Positions 9,438 through 26,219 of a stretch of DNA of 44,024 nt are shown piece by piece. Under the pieces are notes generated by a model that did not search any database, was not told the origin of the DNA, and worked only from the letters and a program-made list of their open reading frames with translations. This stretch comes from a virus. How positions within the stretch are numbered: position 1 is the first letter of the stretch; each line of letters opens with the position of its first letter. Location of the stretch: the IMG/VR virus record IMGVR_UViG_3300045988_137191. One strand, 5' to 3'. Both the position numbers and the translations under genes were made by a program.

Positions 9438-11309
9438 TTAGTCTGCCTCCGCCCAGTTTTTCGCCTCATGGCAGTCTACAATCAACGGAACCTTCAACGT
9501 AACGCATTCTTCAAGCACCCGCTGGAGTTCCTTGAGGGCTTCCTTGCCCATTTTCGTTGGAGGCACGGACACGTCAATTTCGTCGTGTACGGTAATGTGA
9601 GGGGGAAGCACTTCAAATAGCCCTGCCTCGTACGCATCCACCATACCTTTCTTCATGATATCTGCCGCCGTCCCCTGAATCAACCTGTTGTACAGCGAGT
9701 GCAATTTTCGGGAGGGATGCACCCTTGCCCTCCTGCCAAGCAACGTGAATATGTACCCTGTTTGGGTAGCCTTTTCCACAACGCGCTTGCGTGTCTGCTT
9801 AAGGAAGGGAACCTCCTTGTGGTACGCCTCCATGAACATGACCGCCTCTTCCTTTGACCAATAGAACTTGCGGGAGGCCGCTTCCGCGCCCATGCCGTAT
9901 GACGCGCCGAAGTTGAGTCGCTTGGCTGTACGCCTGTCGAACCCAGTGAGATCCTGAATGTGCTGATGGTAGTCCGTCTTCGGGTTGTCCCTGTACGTCT
10001 GCCTCAGCTCTTCGCTTCCAGGTCCAATCGCGTAATGCGCGCCTATTCGGTACTCAACCTGACTTTGGTCGAGTTTAGCCCACGTGTACCCTTCCTCCGG
10101 AATGAACAGCTTGCGCAGGATTTGCCCTTCCAACAGTTCGTCCCCGCCTGAGAACAGGTCGTCTTCCTGTGCTGAAACCTGTTGCAGGTTAGGTTTCGCG
10201 CTTGAAAAGCGTCCAGACACTGCTCCGTATCCGTCGCTCTTGAGCGGATGGAACTGGCAATGCAGTCTGTCCCCTACGACGAAATCGTAGTACGGAATGA
10301 GGAACATGTTGGTGAGCGTGTTGTAATGCCGCCATAGCAAGATGGTCTTCAGCTTAGGATCAATCCCGGCCATGACCATACGCGTGATGGCATCCTTGTC
10401 CAGATTGGGGTTGCCCTCCTTGCCTTTCATCTTCATGAATTCAGTTGGAGGATTGCGTGGGTACTCAATGCCCTTTCTGTCCAGCACCTTGGCAAGCTGA
10501 GTTGACGATCCAATATCGAACTCCCCGCCAGCCCATTCATAAAGGTCTGTTTGAAGTTCGTACATTTTGTCCACCACAGCCAAGGAAGTCTTCTTTAGCC
10601 GAGGCATGTCCAGCCTGACCCCTTGCTTGCGCATTTGAATCAGCAACGGTATGAGGCGGCACTCTATGCTATACACCTCATCAAGACCCTGCCTAGAGAT
10701 GACCTCCCGTTGCTTCTCGATGATTCGCATGGGCAACATGCCGTCCAGCTCGGCATACCGGGCTACAGCTTGCGCTGGCATCCTCCAAATGTGTTCACGA
10801 GCGTCCTTGAACTTCCAGCCTTGTTTGGCGCAATACATATCCAACAGGTCTGAAGCCTTCTCTTCGCACCCATAGATTTTAGCCAAGGCGGACAAGCTGT
10901 AGGACTGACGGTATTCGTCAATCAACGGCTCAGCGTATTGGATATCTTCAAACGGACCTTTGACTTCAATGCCCATGTTGTTAACGAGCCAGTCAAGATC
11001 GTATACAATGTTGGCTCCCACCTTGCGCGTGGGTTTGGCAAGAATGTCCTTGATTATGCGCAGGTTGCGCTCCTTGCGCTCCGGAGTGGTATCAGGATGC
11101 GCAATGTCCAAATAGACTGCCTTTTCCTTTGTTGCCAGCGAAACGCCAACAACATACCCGTCCTTACGAAAGACTCCCGGCCCTTTTGATCTAAGGTGAG
11201 GGTCTTTCGTTTCAGTGTCTACGCCTATTTCAGTGGCGGAACTCAGCCAATCAAAACTCATTATTCCGCTCCTTTGCCCTTTTAGTTCTTTCCCTCTTTG
11301 AGGCCTCAT
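9438..11309 (-). CDS. DNA polymerase, family A (T7-like), with an N-terminal 3'-5' exonuclease
   Basis: 623 aa. The Exo I motif GVDTETKD is present. Motif B is present as RRTAKRLNFGASYGMG. Motif C is present as HITVHDEIDV. Confidence 0.85.
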   Translation of the reverse strand: MRPQRGKELKGQRSGIMSFDWLSSATEIGVDTETKDPHLRSKGPGVFRKDGYVVGVSLATKEKAVYLDIAHPDTTPERKERNLRIIKDILAKPTRKVGANIVYDLDWLVNNMGIEVKGPFEDIQYAEPLIDEYRQSYSLSALAKIYGCEEKASDLLDMYCAKQGWKFKDAREHIWRMPAQAVARYAELDGMLPMRIIEKQREVISRQGLDEVYSIECRLIPLLIQMRKQGVRLDMPRLKKTSLAVVDKMYELQTDLYEWAGGEFDIGSSTQLAKVLDRKGIEYPRNPPTEFMKMKGKEGNPNLDKDAITRMVMAGIDPKLKTILLWRHYNTLTNMFLIPYYDFVVGDRLHCQFHPLKSDGYGAVSGRFSSAKPNLQQVSAQEDDLFSGGDELLEGQILRKLFIPEEGYTWAKLDQSQVEYRIGAHYAIGPGSEELRQTYRDNPKTDYHQHIQDLTGFDRRTAKRLNFGASYGMGAEAASRKFYWSKEEAVMFMEAYHKEVPFLKQTRKRVVEKATQTGYIFTLLGRRARVHPSRKLHSLYNRLIQGTAADIMKKGMVDAYEAGLFEVLPPHITVHDEIDVSVPPTKMGKEALKELQRVLEECVTLKVPLIVDCHEAKNWAEAD

Positions 11310-11640
11310 GTGCCAGTGTCTTGCACTCGTCAGAGCAATACTTAAACCTTGCGTCGCCCTTAAAAGGCTGTCCGCACTGCTTGCAATAGATCACGCGAGG
11401 CTCAGACCGTTGCGCCGCTATCTTGCACGCACGGCAGCAGTAGCGTTGCCAAGGTACAGCGGGAACGAACGTGTTGTAGCAGTCGGGGTTGGCGCACGAC
11501 CTACGCTCTTTTTCCCTTTCCTTTTGCTCCTTTTTGATCTTAGTAGCAAGGCTGGAATTGCATATGGCACATACAACGGTCTTTGTAGCGTTACCCACAA
11601 GCACATTGCGCCCGCAGATCGTGCATGCAAGAACTTTCAT
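11251..11640 (-). CDS. Cysteine-rich protein with several zinc-ribbon-like motifs, function unknown
   Basis: 129 aa counted from the Met at 11640, which has an AGGAGA ribosome-binding site. There are three paired CxxC/CxxxC clusters: CTICG...CAIC, CANPDC...CCRAC and CKQCG...CSDEC. Confidence 0.45.
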   Translation of the reverse strand: MKVLACTICGRNVLVGNATKTVVCAICNSSLATKIKKEQKEREKERRSCANPDCYNTFVPAVPWQRYCCRACKIAAQRSEPRVIYCKQCGQPFKGDARFKYCSDECKTLAHEASKRERTKRAKERNNEF

Positions 11641-11784
11641 AGCGTCTCCTGGATTTTTACCATGCGCAGGAACGTCGCTTTGAGCGGCGAAAATTCCTTT
11701 CGTGGCCTTTGCCCTATGCCGAAAGGGCGTCCTGCAAAACGGCATTCCTGCGCATTTTAAGAGTTTGCCTGTTATTTCAATAGG

Positions 11785-13056
11785 TTACTTAGAGCACGCT
11801 TCGGTCAGACTCAGGACTTCGATGAGAGGCCAGTGGCCTTTGTAATCCGTCTTGTAGGGCTTGTCGTAGATGACCTTGCGCACCCCAAGGTGGTTGAGAA
11901 GCTTCAGGCACGCATCGCATGGCCCATGCGTCACGTACACCACAGCGTTGCTCCAGTCTGAGAATCCGTTCTGGAGAGCCCTGATGCACGCCCTCATCTC
12001 AGCATGAACGGAGTAGCACCCGTCGCTGTAGAACACTTCCTTCTTGTCCCTTGCGCATTCAGTGCAAGCCTCCCCGTCCCGGTCTCCGTACCCCGTTGCG
12101 ATGATTTCTCCACGTGAGATAATCACAGCCCCACACTTCTTTTTTAAGCAACGGGACTCTTTAGAGGCCGTCCACGCCACGTTCATATTCATCGTATGAT
12201 TGCGCCAATCGAATAGCCCGATAAAACGTTGCACAAAAGCTCCAATTGTCAAACGCTGAATAGCGGCTTGGGGGCACGACACCAACGGCTGTGCAACATT
12301 AAGTCTCTCGTTGTCGTACCTCTTTTCGCAATCCCTGAACTTGTCAAACGCCCATTCATAGAAGTGCAAGTTGAGGGCTTGATGGATGTGATAACCTAAT
12401 TCAAGGTTAGGATACGTTCTTTTAAGCATTGCGAGCGCAGTGTAATGCACGACCCTGAAGAAAGGCAAGTCATACGGCAGACCGTACCAAAGGTCATTGG
12501 ATCGCATGATGACTTGCATGTTGAGCGCATCACCTTGAATGTACAGGTTGATGATCAATGTGCAAGGATTATCGTTGCTGATGTAGGCATGTTCCTTGGA
12601 GTACAGCGTCATCACAGCCTTTTTGGAATCAGGGTTGTTACGCAAGCAATTGATTGCGTGCTCGAACTGAGTAAAACCATGCTTATTCTCGTCATGGAAC
12701 AGAAGGAACCCATAGTTGCTGTTGATGGTTTTTCCGTCGTCGGAGCACTTGCTCCAGAACTTGCTCATCTTTACAGCGTCTTCCAATTGACGAGATCCGC
12801 TCGCGTAAAAGTCCAGTTCCTTCTCAAGGTACTCCTGAGAGGGATACCGTCCAAGGCAATACGTAGAAGCCTCCGGGTCGAGCACCAACGTTACGTTGCG
12901 CATTTCGTAGAGCCCTTGACCCTTGCGGTTAACAGTGTGCCGACCGTTCTTATGGATGTAATAGAAGATATCCAAGAAAGGCACGCACTGTCCTTTCTTT
13001 ACGTTAAAGGTAGTGAACACAGGGTATTCGTTAGTTCCAAGTTGAGGGGTATCCAT
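11785..13056 (-). CDS. Fusion protein: N-terminal thymidylate-synthase-family pyrimidine C5-(hydroxy)methylase (apparently cytosine-specific) joined to a C-terminal dCMP deaminase
   Basis: 423 aa. The N-terminal part aligns with ThyA: LRNNPDSKK matches LKNDPDSRR, the nucleophile Cys sits in NPCT, and RSNDLWYGLPYD aligns with RSCDVFLGLPFN. That alignment puts an Asp at the Asn177 position, which is the dCMP-hydroxymethylase type. The C-terminal part carries the zinc motifs HAEMRA and GPCDAC of the cytidylate/deoxycytidylate deaminase family. Confidence 0.7.
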   Translation of the reverse strand: MDTPQLGTNEYPVFTTFNVKKGQCVPFLDIFYYIHKNGRHTVNRKGQGLYEMRNVTLVLDPEASTYCLGRYPSQEYLEKELDFYASGSRQLEDAVKMSKFWSKCSDDGKTINSNYGFLLFHDENKHGFTQFEHAINCLRNNPDSKKAVMTLYSKEHAYISNDNPCTLIINLYIQGDALNMQVIMRSNDLWYGLPYDLPFFRVVHYTALAMLKRTYPNLELGYHIHQALNLHFYEWAFDKFRDCEKRYDNERLNVAQPLVSCPQAAIQRLTIGAFVQRFIGLFDWRNHTMNMNVAWTASKESRCLKKKCGAVIISRGEIIATGYGDRDGEACTECARDKKEVFYSDGCYSVHAEMRACIRALQNGFSDWSNAVVYVTHGPCDACLKLLNHLGVRKVIYDKPYKTDYKGHWPLIEVLSLTEACSK

Positions 13057-17205: not shown

Positions 17206-17982
17206 CTAGAACGTAGCTCCGCCGGGGGTAACATCAATGGCTTCAGATGCGTCACCCGCTTCCAGCGCAGTGAAGTCTAGACGCTGTTCGGGAGTGGGCA
17301 ACGCCTTGCGTTCCTCAGTGACAAGCTGAAGCGTTTCCTTGCCGACGAACCCTGCGAACTCCACATGCAGACCAGCCCACGAGCCCTGATCGTTGCTCAT
17401 GGGAACCGTGGTCAGCGTCCACTTCATGAAGTAGGGAAGAGCCTTGCGTCCGGTTCCCGGGATGAATGTGCTGGTAAGCAAGCGGTTCCACCTACGGGCT
17501 TCCTTCAGTTGCGTGGAGGACAAGCAGAGAAGGCAGATACCGTCTTCGATGTAGTCCGGGAACACGATGTAGTATGTGTACGTATCAACGAACTCGTTTC
17601 CTGTTCTGGAGATGAGCTTGTTCTTTTCGTTGCGGTGAAGCTCCCCAGTAGCCTCCATCTGAGCGACAATCTCAGGGGTATGCGCCTGAACGAAGCCGCC
17701 GCGATTGGGCTTCCATTCGATAAAGTAACGGTCGAACCGTCCCACCACAACGTCAACCGGGGGCTCAATGACCCTGTTGTTGATGTTGTTCAGGAACATG
17801 CCTTCTTCCGCGCCTGGGATATGGTTGGGATCAGTGCGCTTGCATTGCGGGGACAGGCTCTGCAGAATGCGAATGAACGGGAACGCAACAACGTCAGCGG
17901 AAAGGCTTTCAAAGCCTCCCAGTCCGTCGTCGAAGAGATGGGAATAGTCCTCAGCCTGATTCTGCATGGTTTCCTTGGTCAT
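17206..17982 (-). CDS. Hypothetical protein; possibly a gp2.5-like ssDNA-binding protein
   Basis: 258 aa. It has an acidic C-terminal tail ending in Phe, as T7 gp2.5 does. It lies beside nuclease and polymerase genes. Support is weak. Confidence 0.3.
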   Translation of the reverse strand: MTKETMQNQAEDYSHLFDDGLGGFESLSADVVAFPFIRILQSLSPQCKRTDPNHIPGAEEGMFLNNINNRVIEPPVDVVVGRFDRYFIEWKPNRGGFVQAHTPEIVAQMEATGELHRNEKNKLISRTGNEFVDTYTYYIVFPDYIEDGICLLCLSSTQLKEARRWNRLLTSTFIPGTGRKALPYFMKWTLTTVPMSNDQGSWAGLHVEFAGFVGKETLQLVTEERKALPTPEQRLDFTALEAGDASEAIDVTPGGATF

Positions 17983-17998: not shown

Positions 17999-18505
17999 TT
18001 AGCCTATGATGAACTTTTCATAGTCGGCTTTGTCGAAAGCACCGCCAGCCTGAACAGCAAGGTAGTGAAGCCCGAGCTGTGTAAGGTGGTCGACCACGTC
18101 CTGGAAGTATTGGCTATGCCCTTCTTCCTCGACAATGATCTTTTTCAGAAGCTGAGCCGACACGTGGTCAATCTCGCTCAGTTTCTGAATGTACTCGTTG
18201 TACTTGAATACCGTGTCCCGCTCGAGATCAGCGTCGGTTGCGAAAACAACCATAGGCTCCTGATTGGTGTCCACGTTCTGAGCCGGGGCAACGATAGGAA
18301 TGCCGCCGAGTTCACGAATACGCTCGCTGAGCATCTCAGCATGGCGCATTTCCGAAATGGCGATTTTCTTTACGGCCTTGGCAAACGTAGGGAACATGAG
18401 GTTGTCAAGGGCATAGTGGTGTTGCATGTACTGACCGATGGCGACAAGCTCCATTGATCTGGCCAGATTCAGAATGTCTATCGATTCCTGAGGGTTCAAC
18501 GACAT
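17999..18505 (-). CDS. Bacterioferritin (Bfr)-like diiron ferritin-fold protein
   Basis: 168 aa. It aligns with E. coli Bfr: ELVAIGQYMQHHY matches ELVAINQYFLHAR. AISEMRHAE matches IDEMKHAD and includes the heme-ligating Met. VEEEGH matches RDEEGH. Confidence 0.7.
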   Translation of the reverse strand: MSLNPQESIDILNLARSMELVAIGQYMQHHYALDNLMFPTFAKAVKKIAISEMRHAEMLSERIRELGGIPIVAPAQNVDTNQEPMVVFATDADLERDTVFKYNEYIQKLSEIDHVSAQLLKKIIVEEEGHSQYFQDVVDHLTQLGLHYLAVQAGGAFDKADYEKFIIG

Positions 18506-18507
18506 AC

Positions 18508-18705
18508 TTACTCCTTTTCGTTTAATAGGTCACGCAGTTCTTCTACATATTCCAACAAGCACGCCACGTCGTCACTGGCTATGGACAAGCCGCCGACGAA
18601 CATGTCATAGTCTCCTACCCGCGACTGAATCTCTTCCAGTTCCTCGTCCGTCATCACTTGCTCCTTTTGATTGTAGTGTTGTAGTAGGTGAACGCGGATA
18701 CGCAC
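18508..18705 (-). CDS. Small acidic hypothetical protein
   Basis: 65 aa ORF in the operon. It has no recognisable motifs. Confidence 0.3.
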   Translation of the reverse strand: MRIRVHLLQHYNQKEQVMTDEELEEIQSRVGDYDMFVGGLSIASDDVACLLEYVEELRDLLNEKE

Positions 18706-19250
18706 TTGGGAAGATCCTGCAGAGCAATATGGGAATCCCCGTCAAACAACGGGTTTTGCTCGTTAAGCAAACAAAGGTTCTTGATGTACGCCTTCAGGGT
18801 CATGGGATGAACGGTCTGCTTGATGTCCGGGTAGAGATCAAGGTTATCCACTAACAGCTCCTTGATCTTGCGCAGGATGCTGGCATCCATCTTGCCGAGC
18901 TCCATTTGCGTCTTGAGGATGTTGGATTCACCCCGTTCGTCAAGGAACTTAGCAAACGCCTCCATGTCCGTAATAGTAGGCGACACGTCCATCTTGACCT
19001 GCACCTTCTCGCCAGAAGGAAGTTTGATCTCGGACAAGCCGTTCTGCATGAGCAGGTTGGGAATAAGCTCTTTGGAGGTCTTGTAGAACGCGGCCTTGGC
19101 TTGCGAAAGCTGTTCTTCCAAGGAGTCTACCGCATCCTTCTGGTTCTTGTACAGCTCCACCAACGCCTTGAGCTTGGCAAGAGAATCCTGCTCGGGAACC
19201 TGATTAGATACCTCGTCCAGCGTTTCCATCAAATAATCAAAGTCACCCAT
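18654..19250 (-). CDS. Hypothetical protein predicted to form a coiled coil
   Basis: 198 aa, operon context only. It could be a recombination-associated protein, but nothing diagnostic was found. Confidence 0.35.
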   Translation of the reverse strand: MGDFDYLMETLDEVSNQVPEQDSLAKLKALVELYKNQKDAVDSLEEQLSQAKAAFYKTSKELIPNLLMQNGLSEIKLPSGEKVQVKMDVSPTITDMEAFAKFLDERGESNILKTQMELGKMDASILRKIKELLVDNLDLYPDIKQTVHPMTLKAYIKNLCLLNEQNPLFDGDSHIALQDLPKCVSAFTYYNTTIKRSK

Positions 19251-22059: not shown

Positions 22060-22836
22060 TTACTTACGGAACTGCGAAAACCGGATAGTCACGTCCTTAT
22101 ACATGCGTCCCGTGAGCGGATTGGTTTTGTCCCTGAGCATGACGCAAGACGGGAACTTGTTACGTAGCAACACCGCCGCCTTAACCCGAAGGTCATCGTC
22201 ACGGTAAAGGTTGCAACCTGAGTTCGTACCCGCTCCAAGTTGATCGTCAGCCGTGAACAGGTTTAGCGTAGCCGTCCTGTAGCCAGCCTTCATCAATTGG
22301 AGTTGCATGTGAAAGTCCTCCAGGATGTCCCCTTCCCATTCGTAACGGAAACCCTCTCCCGACAACGTGGGCAGATGCAGGACTGGCGTCCACATGATGC
22401 GCTTGTTGATGCCCCACGTCTTTGTTTCAGTGTGAACGAACATGCGATGCCGCAAGCCTATCATGGGGAACACCTGACTTACGTTGTCGAACATAGGTCT
22501 GAGCGCGTTGTCTATGCTGACGGGAGGGAGCTTTTCGAGCTTGTTACCGTTGCGATAGGCGAACGCCAGATCGTCATCAAAGATGCCGAGCTTTTCAACG
22601 TCCCGAACGTAAGCCTCTTCCATGATGATGTCCCGAATGCGAGACACTTTATTAGCGGTATGCAACATGAGCCTGACGTTGAACGCTTCGGCTACAGGCT
22701 TGTACGCTTCAGCTTCATCCCTGTGCACCCAAAGGGATACAAAGTAATGAGAATGCTGGAGCCACGTGAGCGTCAGTTGCCTATTCAGCAGAACGTCTGC
22801 CCTTCCCCGGCTCAGTACGGCGAGTTCGTACTTCAT
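22060..22836 (-). CDS. Hypothetical protein; possibly a GT-A-like glycosyltransferase, suggested by a DxD motif
   Basis: 258 aa. There is an N-terminal beta-strand-like segment, then LGIFDDDLAF (DxD) about 90 residues in. There is no P-loop. The call is speculative. Confidence 0.3.
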   Translation of the reverse strand: MKYELAVLSRGRADVLLNRQLTLTWLQHSHYFVSLWVHRDEAEAYKPVAEAFNVRLMLHTANKVSRIRDIIMEEAYVRDVEKLGIFDDDLAFAYRNGNKLEKLPPVSIDNALRPMFDNVSQVFPMIGLRHRMFVHTETKTWGINKRIMWTPVLHLPTLSGEGFRYEWEGDILEDFHMQLQLMKAGYRTATLNLFTADDQLGAGTNSGCNLYRDDDLRVKAAVLLRNKFPSCVMLRDKTNPLTGRMYKDVTIRFSQFRK

Positions 22837-22844
22837 ATCGTCTC

Positions 22845-24110
22845 CTAGAACATTTGGCTTTCAATGAAACTGCGTCGCATGGTGCATTCATAAGCCGTCT
22901 TGTCATGGCGGAAGCCTGTTACCCAGTCCGCCTTGGCATGAGAAATGCGCTGATTCCTTGCGCTGATGTCTTGACCATCGATGGTAAGGACTAGCCCGTA
23001 GAACTCAGTCTTGAGCGCGGGCTTGCCGTCCCGTACTTCACTTAGAGCCATGCGTGTTTGCAACGGAATACCGCTCACGGTAGCCAGCCAATGGACTCCA
23101 AACTGTTCATTGTTGTCTCCCAACAAATAAACGCCGAGTGTGATGCCAGCAATGAGCCCCGCCTTATCCCATTCACCGCCGTTGGTGTAGCCTATGACGA
23201 ATGCGTCAATGTCCGTCTGGCTCGCCATGGACATGCTCCTCTTCAGCTTGATGGTGGAGTTCTTGTCACGGAAGTTGCCAATAGCCGGAATGTAGAACGA
23301 GCTCAGGTTCTTGAGAACTACACCTTCCTCACCGTTGGCAACCAGTGATTCAAAGTAGGTCTTCTTGCCCCGCTCCCATTGCTTGGGAAGGCGTACGGAA
23401 CGATCGAGCATGGGCATGCCTTGCATGAGCTCAAGCCTTTCCCTGAAGGGAATCTCCGTGATGATCTTCTCACGTTCAATGGGAAGGAAGTCGAACGCCA
23501 CCAGCTCCATGGGAGCCGTAGTGCGTTGCGCAAGGTGGCTGTCATGCACGTTAAGCTGAAGCATAGACGTTACAGCGTTCAAACCCTTCCCAGTGAAGTT
23601 GCCGTCATTGAGCTCCACGAACCCGTCAGTGACCAGTTCGCAGTCCAATATGAACTCTTCCTTCCAATGACCAGCGAACTCCTTGAGCGTGCTTAACTTG
23701 CCGTTGAGCGGAACAAGGAGCTTTTCAGTGTACTCCACCGGAAGCAGGGTAACAGTCGAGCGATTACGCCCAAAGGCTGAAAAGCCCTCATCGGGATGGT
23801 AGACCAGAACCATGCGGCAACCATCGAACTTCTCTTCGGCTACCCAACCATTGCCGTCGGAAATGACGGCCTCCTGCTCGTCATGCTTGAGCTGGTCATA
23901 ACGGTAAGCCAACTGAACGTCATGCAACTGATCACGCATGACGCGACCGAAGGTGATCTCCCGCTGTTCACGATAGTGTTCAGCGATGACAGCCTCCAAG
24001 TCCCTGTTCAGGATCTTGCCGTTCTTACCTGTCCCTTCATACGGAACACGCAAGCCGAGCTCTTCGATTCTGTTGCACAACTGCGTAAACGTAGCCATTA
24101 GAACCTCCAA
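22845..24110 (-). CDS. ATP-dependent DNA ligase
   Basis: 421 aa. The nucleotidyltransferase motif I KxDGxR appears as EEKFDGCRMVLVY. Confidence 0.7.
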   Translation of the reverse strand: MEVLMATFTQLCNRIEELGLRVPYEGTGKNGKILNRDLEAVIAEHYREQREITFGRVMRDQLHDVQLAYRYDQLKHDEQEAVISDGNGWVAEEKFDGCRMVLVYHPDEGFSAFGRNRSTVTLLPVEYTEKLLVPLNGKLSTLKEFAGHWKEEFILDCELVTDGFVELNDGNFTGKGLNAVTSMLQLNVHDSHLAQRTTAPMELVAFDFLPIEREKIITEIPFRERLELMQGMPMLDRSVRLPKQWERGKKTYFESLVANGEEGVVLKNLSSFYIPAIGNFRDKNSTIKLKRSMSMASQTDIDAFVIGYTNGGEWDKAGLIAGITLGVYLLGDNNEQFGVHWLATVSGIPLQTRMALSEVRDGKPALKTEFYGLVLTIDGQDISARNQRISHAKADWVTGFRHDKTAYECTMRRSFIESQMF

Positions 24111-25045
24111 GCACTCGGAATGTAAGGTTGCTCCAACGGAGAAAGGATGCGACTGAAGTTGCTCTTAATGCTCTTACCGTCATCCCGAACCCGGCAATAC
24201 TTGTCATATTCGCAGAACAGATTCTGCACGTCATTGCCACGGAGCGGGAACTCCTTGCCGTCTACAGTGAGTACAGGGAAGGACGGAATGCCGTTAATCG
24301 CAAGCCGCTTGAGCACGCTAGGCAGTTCAGTCAGCTTAAGATAAGGCCAAACCCGTCTCATCCCGCGCTGGCACCCAATCCCCGGAACGATGAACTTCTC
24401 GTAGTCGAACATTAAGTGGTTGTAAGAGAAGTCCAAAGCGAACTGGTAAGCCAAGAAGTCCCCAAATCCCTCGTGACGGCGGAAGATTGCGTAGGTGTAA
24501 CGCATGTCTGAAGAGTTGTAAGCCCTCTCCAGATCACCGCTGTCTTCCATGTGCTTCAGCGTCCTGAGGAACAGCTCCGTTCTTGTGGTACAACCAAACG
24601 TCCACGGCGGAGTCATCATGTAAGCGTTGTTGTATACCGTAACCCCGCAAGCGCGACGTGCTTCAACGAAGCTCTTAATGGCAGGAAGCGCGTTGTACGC
24701 ATCGTACTTGTATTCCGGAAGGGATTCCCATGTCTCAATGCTGTTGAACAGTCTGAACAGGAACATGCCCATGCGATGAGCGCGAGGGAACTCAAAGCGA
24801 TTAGCCCTGTCGTCAATGATGTTCTTCACCATGTACTGCGAAACACGATCAAGGATGCGATAGGCGTTGGTGAACTTCCACTTGTCAAGGATAGGATCCT
24901 CGGACACCAGCGCAGTACCATTGACACGTGCGAGGAACCGCTCTTGCCTACGAATAGCGAACCCGTAAAAGTCCACCAGTCGCTTACTGGTAGGCAGATG
25001 CGGAGCCACCGGAAAGTCGTTAGCCTTGAACCAATCCATGCTCAA
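24098..25045 (-). CDS. Hypothetical protein (315 aa) in the nucleotide-metabolism cluster
   Basis: It has no P-loop or other recognisable catalytic motif. Its stop and start codons overlap those of both neighbours (the ligase and the HD nucleotidase). Confidence 0.4.
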   Translation of the reverse strand: MSMDWFKANDFPVAPHLPTSKRLVDFYGFAIRRQERFLARVNGTALVSEDPILDKWKFTNAYRILDRVSQYMVKNIIDDRANRFEFPRAHRMGMFLFRLFNSIETWESLPEYKYDAYNALPAIKSFVEARRACGVTVYNNAYMMTPPWTFGCTTRTELFLRTLKHMEDSGDLERAYNSSDMRYTYAIFRRHEGFGDFLAYQFALDFSYNHLMFDYEKFIVPGIGCQRGMRRVWPYLKLTELPSVLKRLAINGIPSFPVLTVDGKEFPLRGNDVQNLFCEYDKYCRVRDDGKSIKSNFSRILSPLEQPYIPSAWRF

Positions 25046-25698
25046 TCCTTTATGTTAAGCTCTTCGAACGCCTCGAAGAGGTTGGTGTACACCATGTCAT
25101 CGGACATGGGATTCAACAAGGAGTAAACCCGCTTGTCATACTGGGACGCGTCCCAATCGGGCTCACCAAAGAAGAGCGAGCACTCCATGAAGCCAAGCGC
25201 GTCATCCGCCTTCGTAACGGCTGGATCAGGTGTCGCGTTGTACTTGTCAAATATTGCTCGCTGAATCCTGTCTTCGCACTGAAGATACTCATAAGCGCAC
25301 TTGAACGCCTCCCGGTTGCCTTCCTCAGCGACGTCCATGTATACCTTGACAGCTCGTCTCACCGCCGTAACAATGTGGTTCTTCATGGGACGGATGATGT
25401 CCCCTGTGTACGCCTCCACTGCATCATGCAACAGAACAGCCCTCAGGATGTCCGGAGCGGTGATACCCATGACATGCTTGGCATAGGCCAGCGTAGCCAA
25501 CGAATGCTGCCCCACACTATAAGGGTAGGGGGTCGCGCCGTTGAAACGGCAGATGTGCGACAAGCTGTTGGCAATGTGCACAAGGCTCAGGTTCGGTCCA
25601 AAGATCGCGTTCTTTGGATCATGGGTAGGTAAAGCCCAAAGGTTGAGTCTTACGCGTTCAGTTGTGAAAACACCGGGATAACAAGGTTGCTGGCTCAT
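25042..25698 (-). CDS. HD-domain 5'-deoxynucleotidase (YfbR-like)
   Basis: 218 aa. GQHS...LLHDAVEAYTGDIIRPMK fits the YfbR HD signature (H...HDxxExxTGDxxxPxK). Confidence 0.7.
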   Translation of the reverse strand: MSQQPCYPGVFTTERVRLNLWALPTHDPKNAIFGPNLSLVHIANSLSHICRFNGATPYPYSVGQHSLATLAYAKHVMGITAPDILRAVLLHDAVEAYTGDIIRPMKNHIVTAVRRAVKVYMDVAEEGNREAFKCAYEYLQCEDRIQRAIFDKYNATPDPAVTKADDALGFMECSLFFGEPDWDASQYDKRVYSLLNPMSDDMVYTNLFEAFEELNIKD

Positions 25699-26219
25699 TT
25701 GCGTCTCCTAATTGCGATTTCTAACAGCACCTGTTGCGAGATTTCAAGTGCCGCTGTCAGCATGACCTTCGCTCTGGAAGGGTTCAATGCCAACATGTTG
25801 ATGAAATTGTGTCCAGTTTTGAATATGACACTCAGTCGTTTTGGGTCATAGTCAAAGTCCTCTGGACAGTTGTCCTTGGGGCAGTCTGGCGAGAAGCACG
25901 TGCGAGCGGGACACGTCACGTGAGGAAGTTCCAAGTACGCAAGGATCACGCTCACTGGCATGTTCGTGCTGAACAACCAAAGGATCTTACGTGCTTGATT
26001 GGCTGTACGAGCCTTGGAAAGGCAGTTGGTCAGGTGACCTTCTCGTATGCAAGCCTCCTGATACCGTCGCTTCTCAGCTTGCTTGGTGTTGCCTTCAACC
26101 TTCCCTACAAGACGCGCCATGCGTCTCTTGTCCTCTGCTTCAAGGACTGCGGTTCCGGCTTTTGCAGGTGCAGTTTCGCGCTTCACGGCCTTTCGGGAAA
26201 TCATAAAATGCCTCCTCAA
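25695..26219 (-). CDS. Hypothetical Cys-rich protein, first gene of the leftward early operon
   Basis: 174 aa. It contains CPARTCFSPDCPKDNCPED and has a basic N-terminus. Confidence 0.4.
   Translation of the reverse strand: MRRHFMISRKAVKRETAPAKAGTAVLEAEDKRRMARLVGKVEGNTKQAEKRRYQEACIREGHLTNCLSKARTANQARKILWLFSTNMPVSVILAYLELPHVTCPARTCFSPDCPKDNCPEDFDYDPKRLSVIFKTGHNFINMLALNPSRAKVMLTAALEISQQVLLEIAIRRRK

Follow-up and report, generated by a model that had tools for sequence, protein, structure and literature searches.

A predicted dCMP hydroxymethylase fused to a dCMP deaminase in uncultured myovirus-like phages, and a possible dCMP-based route to 5-hydroxymethyl-dUMP

We analyzed IMG/VR virus record IMGVR_UViG_3300045988_137191, a stretch of 44,024 nucleotides that we refer to as the window (1-44024), in which one minus-strand gene encodes a thymidylate synthase (TS)-fold domain and a dCMP deaminase domain in a single polypeptide. 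An earlier note, made from the sequence alone, had described the product as a cytosine-type enzyme of the TS family fused to a dCMP deaminase; the Pfam domains and the residue at the pyrimidine-specificity position (Asp196) agree with that description, and the motifs it listed (LRNNPDSKK in the TS-fold domain, NPCT, HAE and PCxxC) are all found in the 423-aa open reading frame (ORF). The gene, whose JGI product name is 'deoxycytidylate deaminase/thymidylate synthase', has the following features (dCH, dCMP hydroxymethylase; AF2, AlphaFold2):

11785..13056, minus strand: fusion gene (TS-fold domain, linker helix and dCMP deaminase domain), ATG start, 423 aa
12310..12978, minus strand: TS-fold domain, residues 27-249 (Pfam PF00303, E 1.2e-20)
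12712..12720, minus strand: Ser113-Asn-Tyr115, equivalent to Ser94/Tyr96 of T4 dCH; E. coli ThyA (EcThyA) has Val93/Tyr94
12559..12573, minus strand: Asp162-Asn-Pro-Cys165-Thr166, the NPCT nucleophile segment, with Cys165 as the catalytic nucleophile
12469..12471, minus strand: codon of Asp196, the pyrimidine-specificity position, equivalent to EcThyA Asn177 and T4 dCH Asp179
12163..12273, minus strand: long inter-domain helix, residues ~262-298 (37 residues), from the AF2 secondary structure
11866..12195, minus strand: dCMP deaminase domain, residues 288-397 (Pfam PF00383, E 7.4e-16)
11998-12006, minus strand: His351-Ala-Glu353 (in VHAEMRA), zinc/catalytic motif, intact
11908-11922, minus strand: Pro379-Cys380-Asp-Ala-Cys383 (PCDAC), PCxxC zinc motif, intact

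The first 26 nt of the fusion gene are shared with the end of the UvrD-like helicase gene that lies upstream. Residues 27-249 match Thymidylat_synt (PF00303) with 74.2 bits (Pfam cut-off: 24.3), the deaminase domain matches dCMP_cyt_deam_1 (PF00383) with 58.3 bits (cut-off: 25), and both halves receive the same assignment from PHROGs and NCBIfam. The NCBIfam thymidylate synthase equivalogs all score far under their cut-offs (e.g. 53 bits versus 327). According to phmmer, the best TS-family match in PDB is T4 dCH (1b49, E 6.8e-12), which ranks above every true thymidylate synthase, and T4 dCH is also the top Foldseek match of the AF2 model (1b49_A; TM(target) 0.77, root-mean-square deviation 2.9 Å), with E-values of ~1e-14 for the matches to TS and dCH structures. 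The AF2 model (pLDDT 89, pTM 0.85) places the inter-domain helix where ThyA has its C-terminal segment and tail; the helix runs into the deaminase domain, and the model predicts a fixed inter-domain geometry with confidence. The TS-superfamily catalytic set is invariant in the family alignment (A3), namely Cys165, Glu80, Tyr115, Arg185/Ser186/Asp188 and His231/Tyr233, which are equivalent to ThyA Cys146, Glu58, Tyr94, Arg166/Ser167/Asp169 and His207/Tyr209. The positions of ThyA Arg126/Arg127 are occupied by Lys145/Lys146.

The earlier note placed an Asp at the column of ThyA Asn177, and this holds by four approaches (phmmer, MAFFT, hhalign profile alignment and Foldseek structure match). Searched against PDB with phmmer, RSNDLWYGLPYD (containing Asp196) is paired with RSNDVVFGFRND of T4 dCH, and a MAFFT alignment with E. 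coli ThyA and T4 gp42 puts Asp196 on the N177/D179 column. Alignment of a 36-sequence family profile with E. coli ThyA by hhalign (probability 99.1%), the kind of comparison that the note had named as a possible refuter, gave Asp and not Asn at the specificity position; it pairs YD with FN177, DNPCT with LAPCH, and NSNYG with GPVYG. Cys165 shares a column with Cys146/Cys148 and Thr166 with His147/Thr149 (EcThyA/T4 dCH). Among 166 close homologs from a 1.8-billion-protein library that have a residue at the Asp196 column, 163 have Asp there and 159 have Thr after the catalytic Cys. Asp196 has no exception among 25 fusion proteins, whose identity goes as low as 26%, or in alignments A3 and A4. 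In the MetaGPA study, the Asn177/Asp column and the residue after the Cys separate cytosine-modifying from ordinary TS homologs (PMC8670742).

Further residues bear on the reaction type. From the ternary complex of T4 dCH, a hydroxymethylation signature has been proposed that combines a water-activating Asp at the third position upstream of the Cys, a Ser-x-Tyr pair, and the lack of a C-terminal tail, which leaves the folate site wet and makes hydride transfer impossible (PMC6400193). In the fusion protein, Asp162 lies three residues before Cys165 and corresponds to T4 Asp145, the proposed water activator (PMC6400193), and both Asp162-x-x-Cys165 and Ser113-x-Tyr115 are invariant in the family (alignments A3 and A4). 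Thr166 takes the place of ThyA His147, a position discussed in PMC8670742, while the columns of ThyA Trp83 and Leu143 (roles in ThyA: PMC6400193) hold Cys104 and Asp162. The match of the family profile to EcThyA ends at residue 224 of 264, leaving the last 40 ThyA residues, including the tail, without a counterpart. By all available sequence and structure criteria the N-terminal domain is thus a predicted dCMP hydroxymethylase, since it has every signature residue of T4 dCH and lacks the ThyA tail. An XP12-like dCMP methylase was also considered, and was rejected in view of the hydroxymethylation signature and the missing C-terminal tail. The earlier note had envisaged DNA with 5-hydroxymethylcytosine (5hmC), 5-methylcytosine or 5-hydroxymethyluracil (5hmU); hydroxymethylation stands, methylation does not, and the gene context favors 5hmU (see below).

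The deaminase half has dCMP deaminases as its best PDB matches (2hvv, E 1.5e-15; T4 Cd 1vq2, E 4.9e-12; 4p9c), these relatives being from S. mutans, T4 and cyanophage S-TIM5. Four more Cys residues in this domain (303, 331, 334 and 347) are invariant in the family and may form a second zinc site. Human DCTD, a dCMP deaminase, converts 5-hydroxymethyl-dCMP (hm-dCMP) to 5-hydroxymethyl-dUMP (hm-dUMP) (PMC12386326).

Both domains are conserved across the 25 fusion proteins, and the same architecture is found in ~17 clusters at the 50% identity level; relatives at 26-32% identity (P0191) are still fused. The replication module of the relatives contains genes for a SNF2 helicase, DUF7307, a ferritin-like protein, a Pam3-gp34-like protein, an AEP primase, a UvrD-like helicase, the fusion, and PolA. 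In a distant 40-kb contig (L093, 9438-11392), a YfbR-like HD gene overlaps the start of the gene for a 32%-identical fusion (P0191), an arrangement that suggests tight coupling between nucleotidase and fusion. The same contig has a PF18909 (dGTP_diPhyd_N) gene near the fusion. Among homologs of the N-terminal domain, P0188, P0245 and P0257 (35, 36 and 33% identity) carry an N-terminal P-loop kinase-like domain fused to TS, and P0197, a close TS homolog, has an intein with an HNH domain inside its TS domain.

Four other minus-strand genes of the window are of direct relevance to the fate of the product. Three of them (TAGT, PF18723 and HD) were unnoticed in the earlier note:

9438..11309, minus strand: family A DNA polymerase (PolA), in the same operon-like module as the fusion; presumed consumer of the modified dNTP
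22060..22836, minus strand: TET-associated glycosyltransferase (TAGT, PF20691), predicted to glycosylate 5-hydroxymethylpyrimidine in DNA after replication
24098..25045, minus strand: PF18723 'HMUDK_hel' protein (HEL; formerly aGPT-Pplase clade 1), Pfam E 2.5e-50, model positions 4-275 of 281
25042..25698, minus strand: HD-domain phosphohydrolase, predicted dNMP phosphatase (phrog_318, E 1.7e-26; weak Pfam YfbR-like/HD matches)

The PF18723 protein has no Walker A motif and occurs in the window without any kinase. We considered it as a 5-hydroxymethyldeoxyuridine (5-hmdU) DNA kinase (5-HMUDK) and rejected this; besides the missing Walker A, the P-loop kinase of Pam3 and of Microbacterium phage Golden is a separate, upstream gene. 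The PF18723 homolog of Pam3, Pam3_50, is annotated as aGPT-Pplase1, and the Pam3 P-loop kinase gene belongs to PF18748. In Golden (L011/L092; genes 47, 54 and 55), a Ploopntkinase3 gene lies directly upstream of PF18723. No match was found when the PF18723 profile was searched against PDB sequences. PF18723 proteins share an invariant Cys-Glu motif, D[VI]QNx[FL]CE (alignment A2). A Cys-Glu pair has been proposed as catalytic in the clade-2 aGPT-Pplases (amino-acid:DNA transferases), so by analogy the clade-1 protein may be an enzyme acting at C5/C6 of 5hmU and not a passive helical domain.

The earlier note's statement that there is no separate ThyA, ThyX or dNMP kinase holds within the window, as judged by a TS profile search, a Walker A scan and the gene listing. 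The fusion ORF is the sole match of the TS profile in the window, with no second TS. Of all stop-to-stop segments in the window, just four contain a Walker A motif: those of the UvrD-like helicase and of the primase, plus two of 71-77 aa without a matching called gene (nt 24963, minus strand; nt 26180, plus strand).

To place this gene set in a wider context, we annotated ~180 IMG/VR loci with small profiles for TS, deaminase, PF18723 (HEL), TAGT and HD, among others; in all, PF18723 loci number more than 440 and Asp-type TS loci more than 570. TS homologs were typed as Asn (N) or Asp (D) by reading the RS.D...[ND] segments directly; MAFFT with --add --keeplength shifts the Asp column of Asp-type sequences by 1-2 residues. 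Of the 80 loci seeded with HEL, 60 have a TS homolog within 3 kb, and all 60 are Asn-type (RSND..WG...[AIV]N). Nearly all of these 60 carry the hydroxymethylase Asp in KD[IV]PC, and being Asn-type with this Asp they are taken as dUMP hydroxymethylases. The gene order is typically HEL-TAGT-TS(N)-HD or HEL-TS(N)-HD, and just 4 of the 60 loci have a deaminase within 10 kb. Brevibacterium phage LuckyBarnes (L010, 3822-7837) has the order TS(N)-TAGT-TAGT-HEL.

The PF18723-TAGT-TS(Asn)-HD cassette, seen in L039, L040, L053, L054, L059, L061-L064, L066, L068, L071, L074, L077-L081, L083-L085 and L087, is apparently undescribed (we found no paper on it in the literature) and leads us to predict glycosylated 5hmU for LuckyBarnes and for many of the uncultured phages.

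The Asp-type loci show a different pattern. In the set seeded with the fusion, five loci (L109-L113) have an unfused TAGT-HEL-(HD)-TS(Asp)-deaminase arrangement, and contigs 134020 and 111509 each contain a diverged fusion plus a diverged HEL; the unfused arrangement is also seen in L119. Of 80 loci seeded with Asp-type TS, 55 are without a deaminase within 10 kb and in 19 a deaminase is adjacent; every locus of this set that also holds HEL has a deaminase. One locus (L181) combines HEL, a dCMP deaminase, a PF18748 5-hmdU DNA kinase, TAGT and TS(Asp); the characterized 5-HMUDK phosphorylates 5hmU, not 5hmC (PMC6457204). Overall, 10 of 11 Asp-type HEL lineages have a fused or adjacent deaminase, whereas the share with a deaminase is 4 of 60 for Asn-type HEL loci (Fisher p = 2e-8) and 20 of 75 for Asp-type loci lacking HEL (Fisher p = 7e-5); these p-values overstate the case because the counted lineages are not independent. 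The neighbor-joining tree of HEL has its Asp-associated members scattered among Asn-associated ones, at three or more distinct positions, a distribution that fits recurrent exchange of TS(N) with TS(D) plus deaminase. An argument for a shared substrate from the similarity of the HD and TAGT proteins was dropped, since those of Asp-type and Asn-type cassettes are only 22-39% identical, too low for this purpose.

The context in the window (TAGT, PF18723 and HD), together with the difference between Asn-type cassettes and those with Asp-type TS plus deaminase, points to the 5hmU branch of pyrimidine modification. The simplest reading of these arrangements would be that TS(Asp) plus deaminase stands in for TS(Asn), each supplying hm-dUMP, with the same HD, HEL and TAGT acting downstream. 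If 5hmU is made in this phage, the order of the two steps must be reversed relative to the known route, because the hydroxymethylase of the window is Asp-type. We thus propose a sequential bifunctional enzyme working in the order dCMP, hm-dCMP, hm-dUMP for DNA with modified thymine, a proposal to which we give about an even chance of being right. The N-terminal domain would use methylene-tetrahydrofolate to hydroxymethylate dCMP at C5, and the C-terminal domain would deaminate the resulting hm-dCMP to hm-dUMP, with fusion or adjacency of the two limiting the escape of hm-dCMP. Host kinases would convert hm-dUMP to 5-hm-dUTP, the phage PolA would incorporate the latter instead of T, and the HD phosphohydrolase would lower the competing dTMP pool. 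Once the DNA has been replicated, its 5hmU would be elaborated by the PF18723 protein and TAGT. Since the reversed order bypasses free dUMP, host ThyA would be unable to divert the flux to dTMP. Directly observed are the architecture of the protein, its specificity and catalytic residues, the genes around it and the pattern across loci; from sequence and context we infer the substrate order, the substrate of the HD protein, the participation of host kinases and the identity of the final base.

A broader version of this proposal is that widespread uncultured myovirus-like phages make hm-dUMP without passing through dUMP and use it for a kinase-independent, base-J-like hypermodified T produced by TAGT and PF18723, the Asp-type pair having repeatedly arisen or been swapped in for TS(Asn). 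We put this forward tentatively and rate it slightly below even.

Several observations weigh against the sequential route, besides the non-independence of the lineages counted above. Cytosine-modifying phages, too, can have TS(D) next to a deaminase (in Xp15 together with a carbamoyltransferase), and in MetaGPA the set of TS, carbamoyltransferase and dCMP deaminase was tied to contigs with modified C (PMC8670742). The TAGT-family enzymes characterized so far act on 5hmC. The fusion family has GYGD where dCMP deaminases usually have GYNG, and the closest solved relative of the HD protein (2gz4, E 1.3e-06) is an uncharacterized protein. In the window we found no P-loop 5-HMUDK (PF18748 or related), no Pfam kinase in the minus-strand ORFs, and no amino-acid:DNA transferase (PF18724, formerly aGPT-Pplase2); the same scan detects the transferase Pam3_47. 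Our own kinase and transferase profiles, each derived from a single sequence or a handful, have low sensitivity. Finally, in Golden PF18723 goes with a P-loop kinase and an Asp-type TS. Golden lacks a detectable deaminase, so PF18723 is not strictly tied to the uracil route, and Golden may be a 5hmC-directed version of the system.

Three other explanations were weighed against the sequential one. The fusion could be an ordinary deaminase-ThyA protein, in which the deaminase makes dUMP, the TS domain turns it into dTMP, and the DNA stays unmodified; this is what the JGI label says, and the generic Pfam, PHROG and NCBIfam names also say thymidylate synthase. The residues tell otherwise (Asn177 to Asp, His147 to Thr, Leu143 to Asp), as do the loss of the 40 C-terminal ThyA residues with the hydride-transfer tail, the NCBIfam equivalog scores far under their cut-offs, and the DNA-hypermodification genes in the context. 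We consider this explanation very improbable, and the fallback offered in the earlier note, of just a ThyA-deaminase fusion for dTMP supply, finds no support with Asn177, His147 and the C-terminal tail all missing. More weight goes to a T4-like branch point, where the two domains would act on dCMP in parallel: hm-dCMP would become hm-dCTP and yield 5hmC DNA glycosylated by TAGT, the deaminase would make dUMP for host ThyA, and the fusion would merely co-localize two dCMP-consuming enzymes, helping to exclude unmodified C. T4 gp42 and Cd are the same enzyme pair at dCMP (PMC8670742), the characterized TAGT-family enzymes glycosylate 5hmC, Xp15 has TS(D) and deaminase with a carbamoyltransferase, and in MetaGPA the deaminase domain is statistically tied to cytosine-modified contigs. 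An adjacent deaminase is moreover present in 19 of 80 Asp-type loci, mostly without nearby PF18723, and Golden joins PF18723 with an Asp-type TS without a deaminase.

Against such a parallel scheme, no dCTPase or MazG-type enzyme and no dNMP kinase was found in the window, whereas the Asp-type TS of Serbin comes with a thymidylate kinase and a dUTPase, PRA-PH accompanies TS, carbamoyltransferase and dCMP deaminase in the MetaGPA modified contigs (PMC8670742), and some Asp-type TS proteins are themselves fused to a kinase. The HD/PF18723/TAGT set of the window recurs at dozens of loci next to an Asn-type dUMP hydroxymethylase, and a parallel branch point leaves unexplained why nearly all Asp-type PF18723 cassettes have a deaminase, as compared to about a quarter of the other Asp-type loci. 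On balance we regard the parallel scheme as rather unlikely. An intermediate case, in which part of the hm-dCMP goes to hm-dCTP and part to hm-dUMP, so that both 5hmC- and 5hmU-derived bases are made and modified further, appears improbable to us. The architecture is compatible with both fates, the window has two candidates for post-replicative steps (TAGT and PF18723) without a kinase or transferase, and Pyle et al. mention rare phages with the potential for both precursor types. However, host kinases would have to accept both hm-dCMP and hm-dUMP, and the predicted fixed geometry between the domains (pTM 0.85), with the tight fusion or adjacency, hints at coupling and not leakage. Among these readings, we prefer the sequential one.

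At ~44 kb, the window looks like the whole, or nearly the whole, genome of a myovirus-like phage. Its plus-strand genes (terminase, portal, sheath, baseplate, tape measure and endolysin, among the best 25 of 58 PHROG families) are structural or lytic. Public metagenomes contain more than 100 contigs of 42-44 kb with a fusion protein 92-100% identical to that of the window, and this abundance may make the modification ecologically relevant; SRR23175694 and ERZ27291373 are examples of samples rich in the phage. A megablast search of 6 kb of the window against 50,697 deposited phage records gave no match, and therefore there is no close cultured relative among these records. Scanning 185,579 species genomes for a host gave a single match, a Thermoplasmata contig of 7.4 kb in a metagenome-assembled genome, probably a viral fragment that was binned in error. 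A 432,583-bp contig (L006; ENA ERZ28656998 scaffold_5) contains, at 180574-201845, a nearly identical phage copy with a HicA/HicB toxin-antitoxin insertion within the tail module; this copy may represent a prophage, a concatemer or an assembly error.

Other proteins encoded on the minus strand of the window include a ferritin/rubrerythrin-like protein (17999-18505; PF00210, E 1.5e-23), which lies inside the replication module and is conserved in L002 and L005-L007, and Pam3 gp34-like (PF23977) and Pam3 gp33-like/DUF7307 proteins (17206-17982 and 18654-19250). The latter two are mutual neighbors in all relatives and in the diverged L093; cyanophage Pam3 has a full thymidine-hypermodification cluster, which hints at a functional link to the gp33/gp34-like pair. 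Between the fusion and PolA lies a Cys-rich ORF of 164 aa (11251-11745) with several CxxC pairs and a weak HNH-endonuclease PHROG match; the slot varies among relatives, holding 129 aa (L005, L007) or 164 aa (L006).

Hypermodified DNA protects phages from restriction and CRISPR defences, and DNA hypermodifications are a source of enzymes for epigenetic sequencing and DNA labelling. If the sequential route is true, it would explain the presence of some Asp-type 'dCMP hydroxymethylases' in thymine-modification cassettes, and it would warn against the current practice of inferring cytosine modification from Asp177 alone. A single polypeptide converting dCMP to hm-dUMP would possibly be a useful reagent.

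As compared to known systems, the closest match for the enzyme families is T4 gp42 with Cd, which shares Asp179, Asp145, Ser94/Tyr96, Cys-Thr and the missing C-terminal tail. The T4 enzymes are separate proteins that act in parallel on dCMP and are backed by a dCTPase and a dNMP kinase; the window has a single polypeptide and the accessory genes of 5hmU-type cassettes, and the dCTPase and the kinase were not found. Xp15 and the MetaGPA clusters for 5-carbamoyloxymethylcytosine also join an Asp-type TS to a dCMP deaminase, there as adjacent genes (PMC8670742); they differ from the window in being unfused, in having a carbamoyltransferase and (in MetaGPA) a PRA-PH pyrophosphatase, and in that the modified base is cytosine. 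The HEL-TAGT-TS(Asn)-HD cassettes, including that of LuckyBarnes, have the same PF18723/TAGT/HD set with a C5 hydroxymethylase, which is Asn-type and has no adjacent deaminase, and their product is only predicted. In human cells, the action of DCTD on hm-dCMP is a salvage side reaction with a toxic outcome and not dedicated biosynthesis (PMC12386326).

The 5hmU pathways of the SPO1/SP8 and M6/ViI/SH-Ab 15599 types use the same enzyme families, with the same predicted product, hm-dUMP, as well as dTMP-depleting accessory enzymes and a nearby PF18723 gene (PMC8989533; PMC13458397). The known route goes from dCMP to dUMP to hm-dUMP, followed by 5-HMUDK and an amino-acid:DNA transferase (PMC8989533; PMC13458397), that is, it deaminates first and relies on an Asn-type hydroxymethylase, whereas the window has an Asp-type enzyme and TAGT instead of 5-HMUDK and transferase. 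The system in the window falls outside the described thymidine-hypermodification systems, given that our searches turned up neither the kinase nor the transferase, and it is not T4-type either. In the full-text literature we found no TS(Asp)-deaminase fusion and no phage route from hm-dCMP to hm-dUMP; an earlier mention is possible in Iyer et al. 2013, reportedly the comparative study that defined these families. To our knowledge, the described routes to 5hmU-DNA all begin with dUMP (through an Asn-type hydroxymethylase) or with thymine oxidation in DNA, and the hm-dCMP route, if true, would be a third entry point to 5hmU-based DNA.

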